A stretch of DNA of 64,000 nucleotides. Origin: a virus. Of this stretch, positions 924-20,903 are shown piece by piece. Below the pieces are notes generated by a model. That model made no database searches. It was given only the letters and a program-made list of their open reading frames with translations, and was not told the DNA's origin. How positions within the stretch are numbered: position 1 is the first letter of the stretch; the number at the start of each line of letters is the position of its first letter. Where the stretch lies: IMG/VR virus record IMGVR_UViG_3300044940_000144, positions 11,958-75,957 of that record. One strand, written 5' to 3'. Made by a program: the position numbers and the translations under genes.

Positions 924-1478
924 AGCGCCCCTTGCTTAGCTTGGCCTTGCGTTTTCGGAGCTCGGTTTGAGCCTGTCGAGAGGCGTACTGCGCCCAGTGC
1001 TGGGACGCAGTACAGGCCAAATAGCAGCGTTTTCCTTGCGTTTCCATCGCCCGGAATCGCCCGCCGTTTCGGCCGAGAGACTCGAACCCGCCCAGGTAAC
1101 GCTTTACCGGGTGGGGGGTAACTCCCCCGCTCGTCTCCCCTGCGCTCGCCTCGCGGCGACGCTCACGGCATGTGTGGCACCCGCCCGCTCTCTCCATTTT
1201 GCGGACGAGCCCACTCTGGGTTTTGTGCCAACTGGGGGTCGTCGCGATGGCCCCCACCGCCCCGGCGGTCCGTTGCGGCTTCCGGTATTGTCGCCCCGGA
1301 CGGCTATGGCACTCCCAGTATCGTTCCGCTGGGCACTACAGACGGCTGGCTGGGAGGAAAGGACGAGGCTACCGTCTAGGTCCGGCCTCCCATGAGCTTG
1401 CGCGTGACCCCCGTAATGCAGCCATACGGCCGAACCGTACCCGCCGGGCCTGTCACGACGCTCACTGTCATGCGCACC

Positions 1479-12214: not shown

Positions 12215-12296
12215 TGGGGGCCGAGGGAGTCGAACCCTCATGCCTTGCGGCGCCGGATTTTGAGTCCGGTGCGTATGCCAGTTCCGCCAGACCCCC
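12215..12296 (-). tRNA. tRNA-Leu(CAA), CCA not encoded
   Basis: Acceptor GGGGGTC/GGCCCCC, anticodon arm CCGGA-CTCAAAA-TCCGG, long variable arm, GAGGG-TTCGACT-CCCTC. Confidence 0.95.
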
Positions 12297-16255: not shown

Positions 16256-16342
16256 CCTGATGGCTGGTGAGAACCCCTGCCTTTCGCAGGAGCTCTCATC
16301 AACCACCGTCAGGGCATGGGGGTGGCTCAAGACCACCCCCAT
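16256..16342 (-). promoter_or_regulatory. two intergenic stem-loops (possible RNase III-type processing site)
   Basis: Long imperfect hairpin at 16256-16313 and a GC hairpin at 16316-16342. Confidence 0.55.
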
Positions 16343-16357
16343 ACACCCGATACAGCC

Positions 16358-16822
16358 CTAGCTGCTAAGCAGCGCTAGGGCGGCATCGACCAGCGCGATA
16401 GCCTGGTTCTCGCCGGTCAGGACATCGTCGTTGTACGCTTCCACCAGACCGCGGCCATCGCCATCGGCACGGACGAAGCCGGTGTCGATGATGGCTTGGC
16501 ACAGAGCGCGCTCGGCCTCCTTCACCGGGTCTGGCGTGGAGTCGTCGTCCATGTACGTCGCATTCGACGTATCGACTCCGGTCACCAGGCCGAGCATGCC
16601 CTCAAGGCATGCTGCGCAAAAGACATCGCCCGAGTCGGGCGTGACCTCCATCGGGTTGCGGACCGCGAACTCATGGTCCTCCCCCTCGAAGGAGCGCACG
16701 ATCAGGTAATCGTTCCTGGTCCAGGCGATCTGACTGGATTCGTACAGCTCACGAATGCGCTGGAGAATCTCCGGCGCAGATGCGTGTCGCACGCACCCGA
16801 CGATGTCGGTCGTGACGGTCAT
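16358..16822 (-). CDS. hypothetical protein
   Basis: Shared start motif; 154 aa. Confidence 0.8.
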   Translation of the reverse strand: MTVTTDIVGCVRHASAPEILQRIRELYESSQIAWTRNDYLIVRSFEGEDHEFAVRNPMEVTPDSGDVFCAACLEGMLGLVTGVDTSNATYMDDDSTPDPVKEAERALCQAIIDTGFVRADGDGRGLVEAYNDDVLTGENQAIALVDAALALLSS

Positions 16823-16893
16823 ATGTGGTTCCCCCTTGTGTGGGTTTTCGATGTCCAGCCCTTCGTTATGGGCTGGGCGGCCTAAGCCACTTT

Positions 16894-16961
16894 GGGCTAC
16901 CGCTTCCCGGACGTCGGTGACGTCCGGGATTCATGCCTGCCCAGGGCAATCGTCAGGCGGC
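16894..16961 (-). ncRNA. hammerhead-like type I element with a variant core
   Basis: GCCGC CUGACGA U UGCC-cugggca-GGCA U GAAU CCCGGACGUC..GACGUCCGGG AA GCGGU AGCCC; same scaffold as the three type I copies, with compensatory changes. Confidence 0.7.
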
Positions 16962-19229
16962 TTACCGCTGATGACGACTGACCAGATGCGCGACCGTCGC
17001 GCGCATGCCGTCCTCAGCGTTCGACACCTCACCGTCGGTAGCGGCGTCAACCACAGCGGCCTTGCCCGAGAGCACTGCCTCCATGTCGGTGTCGATGGAG
17101 TCCTGGCACAGCAGCCAGTAGACGTTCACCATCTCGGCCGTTTGACCGATCCGGTGAACCCGGTCCTCGGCCTGTCGCATGTCCTTGGGCGTCCAGCCCA
17201 GTTCCAGAAACGCGACGTGCGACGCCGCGTGCAGGGTGAACCCTGCCTGCCCGGCCATGAGGCTGACGACGATCAGCCGCGTGTCCGGGTCGTTCTGGAA
17301 CCGCTGCACGGACGCATCGTTGGCGTCGTTAGCGCCTCCGATGACCCGCACCGCGCCCGGGAAGGCCTTGTAGAGCGCCTCCTGGGCCTCGCGGTGGTGG
17401 GCGAACAGCACCAGCTTTTCATCGCTGGACTCCAGGAACTCCTTCGTCCACTCGATGGCGTCGCGCACCTTGCCTTTCGCCGCCAGGCGACGAAGGGCGG
17501 TGAGCCGCGCCAGTGCTTCCGCTTGCAGCACCCTGCCGGGGTCGTAGCCGTTGGCAAGCAGCCACGCCACGAAGTCACGTTCGGCAAGCTCGTATTCGGC
17601 CCGATTCGTCAGGTCGACGTCGATGACCGAACGTAGCTTGGGCGGCAGGTCAGGCATGACCTGAGCCTTCGTGCGCCGCACGTAGCAGGATGACCGGAGC
17701 CGCTGATTGAGCTCCTCAAGGTTCGCGGCACCGCCGTATGTCGTGCCCCACTTGCTGTAGATGGGCTCGCAATAGCGGTTCTTGAACTGCCTGGGGCCAC
17801 CGAACTCGGCGATCCGCCCCATCATCTTGAGAAGCGGGACAAGCTCCACCGGCCGGTTGACGACCGGGGTGCCCGTCAAAAGCAGGACGTTTTCGACCTG
17901 CTTGGAGAGCCACAAAAGCGCACGGGTGCGCTTTGCGTTCTCATTTTTGGCGTAGTGGGCCTCGTCCACGACGAGCATCTTGGGCTGGATCTTCGCAAGC
18001 GCTTCGATCCAGCCTGCGGGCTCGCGCGTCCGGGAGCCGGGCACGGCGTGGAGGTCTCCGAGGATGTCGTAGTTGACGATGACGACGTCCGCGTCAGCCA
18101 CCAAGCCGTAGTCCGGCTTTTTGCCCGCCAGAACGGCGATGTTCAGGCCGGGCATCCACTTGTTGATCTCGCGCTCCCAGTTCCGCTTCAGAGCGGCCGG
18201 GCACACGATGACCAACGGCGCGGCATCCAGATACCACGCCACGCCGAGAGCCTGGAGGGTTTTCCCCAGGCCCATCTCATCGGCGATGAGCACGCCGCCA
18301 GAGGCAAGCCTCTTGATGGCGTACGCGACCCCTGCCCGCTGAAAGCCGAACAGGGACTCGCCCTCGGGGCCGAAGCCGTCGAGGTCAACGACCGCATCAG
18401 TGGCCATGGATTCCTCGATCGAGGTCTCCCGGTCCGCCTGCTGATCGACGAACGAAATCGCCTCATTAGAGACGTCCCATCCGTGACGCAGGGCGTATGC
18501 GACAAGCTCCGGACCGTTCAGGGTGCTGACTTCCCAGATCCGGTTCACCTTGTTCCAGCGCCGCCCCTGCAGATTCCGAAGGAACGTAAGGTTCACTTCG
18601 AAGTCGGGGTGGCCCGGGGTCAGGTACACTGCGAAGGTCTTGCCGTCGCTGTCCAGATCAACCGCCGCAGGAACGATCTCATGCGGCGGCGGGGCCGACG
18701 CAATGTACTCGTCGGCCTTGTCGGTCAGCTTGAACGAGTGCTTCTTGGCGAACTCCGCGACTGCCGAAGCAGAACTCAGCGGAACGCGGTTGAAGCGCCC
18801 GTCCCAATGGCGACCTGGCAACGTCCGGACATCGGTAACGAGATCGGCGTCGTAGCGGAATGCGATGACGAACTCATCGCCTTCCACGTCGATCAGCTTG
18901 GACGACTGCAGAGCTTTTTCCCGAAGCACCTTGCGTCCCGTTGCCTGCATGCGCTCGCGCCCGTAGTAGGTGCTCGCGACCTGGCCCGGGGGCTCGATGG
19001 CATCAAGATTGATCCCGGCGTCGGACAGCTGACGACGGTAGTGGCGAAGCATGGAATATGCCTCCCACGTCTCCTCGTCCGACCACGTGCCCGGGTCGGA
19101 CGCTGCCAGACCGTGGCCGAACGAGGCGTCGGGCTTGGAGTACCCTTGCCCGTCCTCGGATTCGGCCCAGTCGCACCGTGACGCCAGGTAACTGGCGGCC
19201 CGATGCAGAACGGTCCTTGTATCCGTCAT
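16962..19229 (-). CDS. SNF2-family (SMARCAL1/HARP-like) helicase
   Basis: ADEMGLGKT, DEAH, LTGTP, QAEDRVHRIGQ; N-terminal GRHWDG/GRRWN repeats. Confidence 0.92.
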   Translation of the reverse strand: MTDTRTVLHRAASYLASRCDWAESEDGQGYSKPDASFGHGLAASDPGTWSDEETWEAYSMLRHYRRQLSDAGINLDAIEPPGQVASTYYGRERMQATGRKVLREKALQSSKLIDVEGDEFVIAFRYDADLVTDVRTLPGRHWDGRFNRVPLSSASAVAEFAKKHSFKLTDKADEYIASAPPPHEIVPAAVDLDSDGKTFAVYLTPGHPDFEVNLTFLRNLQGRRWNKVNRIWEVSTLNGPELVAYALRHGWDVSNEAISFVDQQADRETSIEESMATDAVVDLDGFGPEGESLFGFQRAGVAYAIKRLASGGVLIADEMGLGKTLQALGVAWYLDAAPLVIVCPAALKRNWEREINKWMPGLNIAVLAGKKPDYGLVADADVVIVNYDILGDLHAVPGSRTREPAGWIEALAKIQPKMLVVDEAHYAKNENAKRTRALLWLSKQVENVLLLTGTPVVNRPVELVPLLKMMGRIAEFGGPRQFKNRYCEPIYSKWGTTYGGAANLEELNQRLRSSCYVRRTKAQVMPDLPPKLRSVIDVDLTNRAEYELAERDFVAWLLANGYDPGRVLQAEALARLTALRRLAAKGKVRDAIEWTKEFLESSDEKLVLFAHHREAQEALYKAFPGAVRVIGGANDANDASVQRFQNDPDTRLIVVSLMAGQAGFTLHAASHVAFLELGWTPKDMRQAEDRVHRIGQTAEMVNVYWLLCQDSIDTDMEAVLSGKAAVVDAATDGEVSNAEDGMRATVAHLVSRHQR

Positions 19230-19259
19230 GGTCCCCCCTTGTTGTGGTGTACGGTAGGC

Positions 19260-19323
19260 GAGCTACCGCGACCTCCCTTTGCAGGGAGGTTTCGGCCTTG
19301 CTCAAGGGCCATCGTCAGGCGGC
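19260..19323 (-). ncRNA. hammerhead ribozyme type I with pseudoknot (B1)
   Basis: GCCGC CUGACGA U GGCC-cuugagcaa-GGCC GAAA CCUCCCU-gcaa-AGGGAGG UC^GCGGU AGCUC; predicted cut 19270/19269. Confidence 0.9.
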
Positions 19324-20056: not shown

Positions 20057-20105
20057 TGTTTGTCCCCCCTTTTTGGTTGTGTGCGTTCCCATAATGCAGT
20101 AGCGC

Positions 20106-20168
20106 GAGCTACCGCGACCCCCCGCCAGGGGGGGTTTCGGCCTTGCTCAAGGGCCATCGTCAGGCGGC
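20106..20168 (-). ncRNA. hammerhead ribozyme type I with pseudoknot (B2)
   Basis: Same core as B1 with a different stem III; predicted cut 20116/20115. Confidence 0.9.
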
Positions 20169-20804: not shown

Positions 20805-20840
20805 GTTGGTTCCCCCTTCGTAGTGATGATGCAGTAGCGC

Positions 20841-20903
20841 GAGCTACCGCGACCCCCCGCCAGGGGGGGTTTCGGCCTTGCTCAAGGGCCATCGTCAGGC
20901 GGC
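20841..20903 (-). ncRNA. hammerhead ribozyme type I with pseudoknot (B3)
   Basis: Essentially identical to B2; predicted cut 20851/20850. Confidence 0.9.

Follow-up and report, generated by a model that had tools for sequence, protein, structure and literature searches.

The intergenic element V, located on the minus strand at 16961–16893 between the genes for an SNF2-family helicase and a DUF6197 protein, is by sequence comparison a diverged paralog of three type I hammerhead ribozymes in the same genome. These are B1 (19259–19323), B2 (20105–20168) and B3 (20840–20903), all canonical and all on the minus strand. In V the pair 15.1–16.1 is flipped, U15.1–A16.1 replacing A15.1–U16.1, a rare change already published as slow but active; V is thus not a new kind of ribozyme. 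On balance, we lean towards the view that this diverged paralog, which carries the inserted U of its subfamily, is kept as a folded hammerhead that would cut more slowly than B1–B3 or only conditionally. Positions are those of the window, the whole 64,000-nucleotide stretch analysed, which is part of an IMG/VR virus record of 75,957 bp with direct terminal repeats. The same DNA is present in hot-spring/microbial-mat metagenome runs.

V has the topology of a type I three-way junction, in which stem I is the open helix and loops close stems II and III. Stem I contains 5 bp, stem II 4 bp (5 if a U·U is counted) and stem III 9 bp plus the U–A pair. The 5′ strand of stem I (GCCGC, 16957–16961) is identical to that of B1–B3 and begins one base past the helicase stop codon. 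It is followed by residues C3–A9 of the core (CUGACGA, 16950–16956), unchanged from the canonical sequence, and by U 16949, which is either the inserted U of the subfamily or U10.1 in a U·U register. Stem II (UGCC/GGCA, strands 16948–16945 and 16937–16934) and its seven-nucleotide loop CUGGGCA occupy 16934–16948; the closing pair is U–A in V and G–C in B1–B3. An extra U (16933) lies 5′ of G12 and opposite U 16949, giving a U·U at the base of stem II. G12, A13 and A14 (16930–16932) are unchanged. Both core strands, CUGACGA and GAA, agree with the hammerhead consensus, and all ten unpaired core bases are kept in the alignment to the covariance model R1 described below. U15.1 (16929), where the rest of the subfamily (apart from the flipped copies described below) has A, pairs with A16.1 (16905) across stem III (16906–16928), which consists of nine perfect base pairs and a five-nucleotide loop and is unrelated in sequence to stem III of B1–B3. 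A17 (16904) precedes the predicted scissile bond, 16904/16903, which was assigned from hammerhead numbering and falls where the original prediction had placed it. The 3′ strand of stem I (GCGGU, 16899–16903) is followed by an A and then by the tail GCCC(A) (16893–16897), which forms a pseudoknot of five Watson–Crick base pairs with (U)GGGC of loop II (16939–16943).

The A15.1–U16.1 pair, which is nearly invariant, underlies the NUH rule and is written into most hammerhead search patterns. V breaks this rule with U15.1–A16.1 and the triplet GAA. Residue 17 is A rather than the excluded G, and A17 also occurs in about 13 canonical members of the subfamily. G10.1–C11.1 is replaced either by U–A plus the extra U or by U·U; this pair is G–C in 158 of 162 parsed relatives, a count biased by the fact that most were picked by a GGCC pattern. 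The original prediction had described a U·U in place of G10.1–C11.1. The same sequence can be read in that register, but the covariance-model alignment places U–A at 10.1–11.1 and treats U 16933 as an insertion facing the U after A9.

The 13-mer GCCGCCTGACGAT, which spans stem I and CUGACGA-U, occurs exactly four times in the window, always on the minus strand (in V and at 19323, 20168 and 20903), so that the predicted sharing with B1–B3 is exact at all four sites; the chance expectation for an exact 13-mer match in 128 kb is about 0.002. B1–B3 have the layout CUGACGA-U-GGCC-loop-GGCC-GAAA-stem III-UC-GCGGU-AGCUC, and V has in common with them stem I, CUGACGA-U and the start of the tail, GCGGU-A. 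Relative to B1–B3, V has U–A instead of A–U at 15.1/16.1, A instead of C at position 17 and GGGC/GCCC instead of GAGC/GCUC in the pseudoknot. Comparison with the B1–B3 sequences thus confirms the predicted changes of GAAA to GAAU, GUC to GAA and GAGC/GCUC to GGGC/GCCC, and the two core changes do compensate each other, as U15.1 pairs with A16.1. Three changes of paired positions are compensated in V, namely 10.1/11.1 (G–C to U–A), 15.1/16.1 (A–U to U–A) and the pseudoknot (A–U to G–C), and there are no uncompensated helix changes. Loop II of V forms 5 bp with its own tail and 2 bp with the B tail; the reverse swap, B loop with V tail, also gives 2. Since every helix change is compensated, decay is unlikely. 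The random decay of the core that would have spoken against the original prediction is not seen, the helices and the pseudoknot being paired through compensated changes and the ten core bases being retained.

V and B1–B3 belong to a wider group. A pattern scan of IMG/VR with CTGANGAT-GGCC...GGCC-GAAA located at least 119 loci, and about two-thirds of the listed matches to the CTGANGAT scan parse as type I hammerheads with a stem I of 4–6 bp, a stem III and mostly GUC. The subfamily is marked by a U between A9 and G10.1 (carried by 139 of the 162 parsed relatives), a stem I of 5 bp and pseudoknot pairing of loop II with the 3′ tail. In an alignment of 64 members, 97% of the paired cells are paired and 12 of the 17 pairs show compensatory changes, compared with 32–45% paired in slid controls; part of the 97% reflects selection, because the parse demanded pairing. 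The pseudoknot has at least four Watson–Crick base pairs in 65% of the subfamily copies, as against 18% when tails are swapped, and its pairing covaries. The covariance model R1 was built from 64 canonical members, with V left out and B1 and B3 included. In a search of the window, R1 finds V over its full length (1–63) with 29.0 bits and an E-value of 2e-6, a score somewhat inflated since B1 and B3 in the training set have the stem I of V; B1–B3 score 61–62 bits and the next match 17. This match identifies V as a diverged member of the subfamily by homology. The Rfam hammerhead families (RF00163, RF02276, RF00008 and RF03152; clan CL00010) gave no match to V at E ≤ 10 in a 131-nt search, and the Rfam scan of the whole window at the same threshold matched neither V nor any of the B copies. 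B1 alone reaches at best 15.7 bits (RF03152, gathering score 56.3). As a canonical copy fails too, the Rfam miss says little about V. This large group of type I phage hammerheads with an inserted U escapes recognition by Rfam.

A few other copies depart from the consensus. At L021:866–927 (minus strand), the sequence CUGAUGA-U-CGCUG...CAGCG-U-GAAA places U opposite U flanking stem II, with site CUA and an R1 score of 41 bits; the U...U at the base of stem II resembles V, but A15.1–U16.1 is kept. At L072:13319–13381 (minus strand), A15.1 is opposite C16.1 and the triplet is GCC. At L158 6892–6963 (plus strand), GAAC stands where close relatives have GAAAC, one A being missing. The oddities of L072 and L158 may each represent an inactive copy or a sequencing error.

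A second scan of IMG/VR, for any base other than A at 15.1, gave 34 loci, only four of which fold as hammerheads. They come from three phage records (G001 twice, G002 and G003) and are found at L125:6314–6385, L125:6893–6952, L139:1727–1787 and L150:6142–6205. All four are type I with U15.1, the compensating A16.1 and C17. They have stem I and the tail in common and differ in stems II and III, with the core and the flip maintained. The flanking DNA shows no homology between the three records or with the phage of V, and G001 and G003 each also hold a canonical paralog. As these phages are unrelated to that of V, the flip in V arose separately; the change is rare (roughly three records against more than 119), yet recurrent, with at least two origins. 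The same scan gave no true hammerhead with G–C or C–G at 15.1–16.1; six matches with G–C (21–24 bits) derive from one conserved coding sequence and were rejected as ribozymes. A pattern with T at 10.1 and GAAW found, besides canonical copies, only two chance matches that do not fold, and the CTCCCCTGANGAT...GAAW scan gave no new folded copies among the matches listed. Only in V did we see the flip combined with a U·U at the foot of stem II. G001, a phage record of 66 kb, carries nine hammerheads on one strand within about 7 kb (L178 1467–8030; G001:C1:5966–12529, plus strand), comprising two flipped copies, one canonical copy with the inserted U and six copies lacking it. This array reads as a second ‘ribozyme-punctuated’ gene block.

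The first such block, in the window, comprises about eleven hammerhead motifs between phage genes, one of which is V. On the strand of V, Rfam reports five type II motifs and one type III motif from 13.7 to 22.8 kb, none of which reaches the threshold. The SNF2-family helicase gene (16962–19229, minus strand) lies directly upstream of a 139-nt spacer, with V at the 5′ start of the spacer. The DUF6197 gene (ORF 16358–16822, minus strand) follows, with its ATG at 16822 preceded by the ribosome-binding site AAGGGGG (16837–16831, minus strand). Neither a sigma-70-like promoter nor a terminator-like site was found at V, and a role for V as promoter or terminator was rejected on this basis. Other RNA elements share the strand of the hammerhead block: an EGFOA RNA motif at 1074–1225 (minus strand; 47.5 bits, above the Rfam threshold) and an 82-nt tRNA with a long variable arm and a CAA anticodon loop at 12215–12296 (minus strand). 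Inside the block, the segment 21124–21188 (minus strand) matches the c-di-GMP-II riboswitch aptamer models weakly (26–27 bits, gathering scores 40–48, E-value 0.17–1.4), probably by chance.

The flanks of V disturb its fold. Forcing the hammerhead in native context (30–45 nt upstream and 40–60 nt downstream) costs +16.6 to +16.7 kcal/mol for V, compared with +3.8 to +8.0 kcal/mol for B1–B3. This penalty arises because the last helicase codons (CAGUCGUCA...GCGG, 16965–16980, minus strand) pair with the 5′ strand of stem I and CUGACGAUUG; the putative trap between the helicase end and the 5′ half of V would be formed by CAGUCGUCA/UGACGAUUG. Addition of the upstream 20 nt to V yields a gain of −17.7 kcal/mol, which places it within the extreme 3% of random 20-mers drawn from that strand. 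The flanks of the B copies are on the weak side, 5–16% of random 20-mers being as weak or weaker. Because it reaches only the 3% tail, the hairpin is suggestive rather than decisive evidence that V would be held back, and we rejected it as a strong signal. Plain minimum free energy (MFE) folding fails to recover the hammerhead in V and in the canonical B copies alike, because it renders the pseudoknot helix as a nested one; MFE alone cannot judge activity. In the fold of 16823–16903, the predicted 3′ product of V starts with two hairpins (16903–16877 and 16876–16855, together 16855–16903, minus strand). In V as in the B copies, the predicted 3′ product opens with a hairpin of 6–9 bp formed by the 3′ strand of stem I and the pseudoknot tail (16877–16903 in V, 19252–19268 and 20831–20849 in B copies, all minus strand), and the hairpin of V is rebuilt in different sequence. 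Such hairpins could prevent re-ligation, stabilise a 5′-OH mRNA or, ahead of the cut, compete with folding of the ribozyme.

The sequences and folds show directly the anatomy of V, its paralogy, the compensated changes, the support for its bases, the recurrence of the flip and the folding penalty; cleavage by V, its rate and any effect on expression are what we infer. V would self-cleave between A17 (16904) and G (16903), slowly or only under some conditions. Attenuation could come from the flip to U–A, which would remove the contact between A15.1 and G5, from the replacement of G10.1–C11.1 by U–A plus an extra U (or by U·U), and from the end of the helicase ORF, which would sequester the 5′ half of V by forming a hairpin with it. 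Cleavage would partly separate the helicase mRNA from the DUF6197 mRNA, leaving an upstream product that ends in a 10-bp stem III and a downstream product that begins with a 5′-OH and a hairpin. The ten unpaired core bases and the pseudoknot are kept, and a purely structural role needs neither, which argues that ribozyme function is retained. Against an active V stands the combination of the flip, the lost G10.1–C11.1 and the extra U by G12, for which the other copies with U–A are inexact precedents. Each of these three changes lowers activity in published work. We regard as improbable the fuller proposal that V is an attenuated, translation-gated hammerhead and that the flip, rather than being a defect, is a ‘slow setting’ that recurs in phage hammerheads under selection. 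The last eight helicase codons would then pair with stem I and C3–A9 and keep the ribozyme inactive, ribosomes reaching the end of the helicase ORF would melt the hairpin so that the weakened U15.1–A16.1 core could fold and cut, and release of the DUF6197 mRNA would be coupled to helicase translation.

It is possible, if somewhat doubtful, that V is catalytically dead and kept for its shape, as an intergenic spacer that protects mRNA ends or insulates translation. The three departures fall on the best-conserved paired positions of the core, and Perreault et al. (PMC3088659) saw no activity in some predicted ribozymes whose core mutations are highly disruptive. The flanks strongly favour a non-hammerhead fold (penalty +16.6 kcal/mol; z-score −6.85 for the 146-nt fold with native flanks), and the long GC-rich stem III with the two downstream hairpins could stabilise uncut RNA. 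Such a spacer would leave unexplained why ten unpaired catalytic bases and a compensated pseudoknot are retained; moreover, the flip alone is compatible with cleavage (PMC3088659) and persists in four other copies. V and B1–B3 have the same stem I, which suggests recent duplication or recombination, and retention of the core may then reflect youth rather than selection. That V arose recently by recombination or duplication and is free of selection, with B-derived ends, a foreign middle and pairing that will decay, seems to us unlikely. Only the two ends match B, over 13 nt on the 5′ side and 8 nt on the 3′ side, and stem III and the flanks are unrelated to B. Moreover, no orthologous locus was found that could show persistence: a blastn search of phage records with 16350–17700 gave no match, the helicase relatives in IMG/VR and metagenome contigs are only 28–36% identical and none has a hammerhead nearby, and the collections searched contain no close relative of the phage. 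A chance mosaic would hardly be expected, however, to combine three independent compensated pair changes with a pseudoknot that matches and a stem III that pairs perfectly, and the hairpin of the 3′ product has been rebuilt in new sequence to match the altered tail.

The record is a single metagenome-assembled genome, so the variant bases could in principle be sequencing or assembly errors in a canonical copy; we consider this very improbable. The support for the variant bases that the original prediction called for comes from three runs of one sample, whose Logan contigs cover parts of 16300–17700 and show no differences across V. The X1 contig (4.6 kb, depth 33) is possibly the source of the record; the X3 (341 nt, 16865–17205) and X5 (191 nt, 16835–17025) contigs are likewise identical to V. 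The same bases in three separately assembled runs exclude assembly error as far as the data allow, and the changes are several and mutually compensating. A further X3 contig of 164 nt (record 9, 16731–16894; low depth, 2.3) ends at the edge of V and differs from the window at 20 positions. All 12 of the changes listed are plus-strand C to T, as could result from damage or deamination of the template or from hypermutation.

With V included, the flip is found in at least five copies from four unrelated phages, each copy accompanied by canonical paralogs. Its recurrence, with stems covarying around it, suggests a tolerated, probably selected, slower variant, and copies like V are missed because the NUH rule is built into search patterns. 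Existing knowledge of the hammerhead mechanism is unchanged by V. Its value is as a naturally occurring test case, with the flip and a lost G10.1–C11.1 in one element and three matched canonical controls in the same transcript, and it may be useful for asking how phages tune cleavage rates in a ribozyme-punctuated operon. The original prediction of an active, slowed or structural hammerhead variant holds as to the class of V, but it missed the precedents for the flip, in PMC3088659 and in the four phage copies.

The closest published case is a natural hammerhead with U15.1–A16.1, which self-cleaves less efficiently than typical hammerheads, probably through loss of the A15.1–G5 contact (Perreault et al. 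2011, PMC3088659); our literature search found no other paper naming U15.1/A16.1. V resembles it in carrying the inverted pair in a natural sequence but goes beyond it in the loss of G10.1–C11.1, the extra U before G12 and A17, the published sequence being compared by description only. In the same study, stem II may begin with a natural U10.1–U11.1, of all mismatches at this position the best tolerated (Perreault et al. 2011, PMC3088659); those hammerheads have U opposite U like V but retain A15.1–U16.1. The families of Rfam clan CL00010 have the three-way junction and the core consensus in common with V. The four flipped phage copies belong to the same subfamily as V (CUGACGA-U, 5-bp stem I, pseudoknot of loop II with the tail), have the same flip and lie in same-strand arrays together with canonical copies, but they keep G10.1–C11.1 and C17 (site NAC) and have CUCCC in stem I and the tail AUACCC. 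B1–B3 and the subfamily with the inserted U match V in topology, core, inserted U, length of stem I, position and spacing of the pseudoknot, and intergenic location on the sense strand; they differ in having GAAA...GUC and G10.1–C11.1, and the flanks of B1–B3 disturb the fold much less than those of V.
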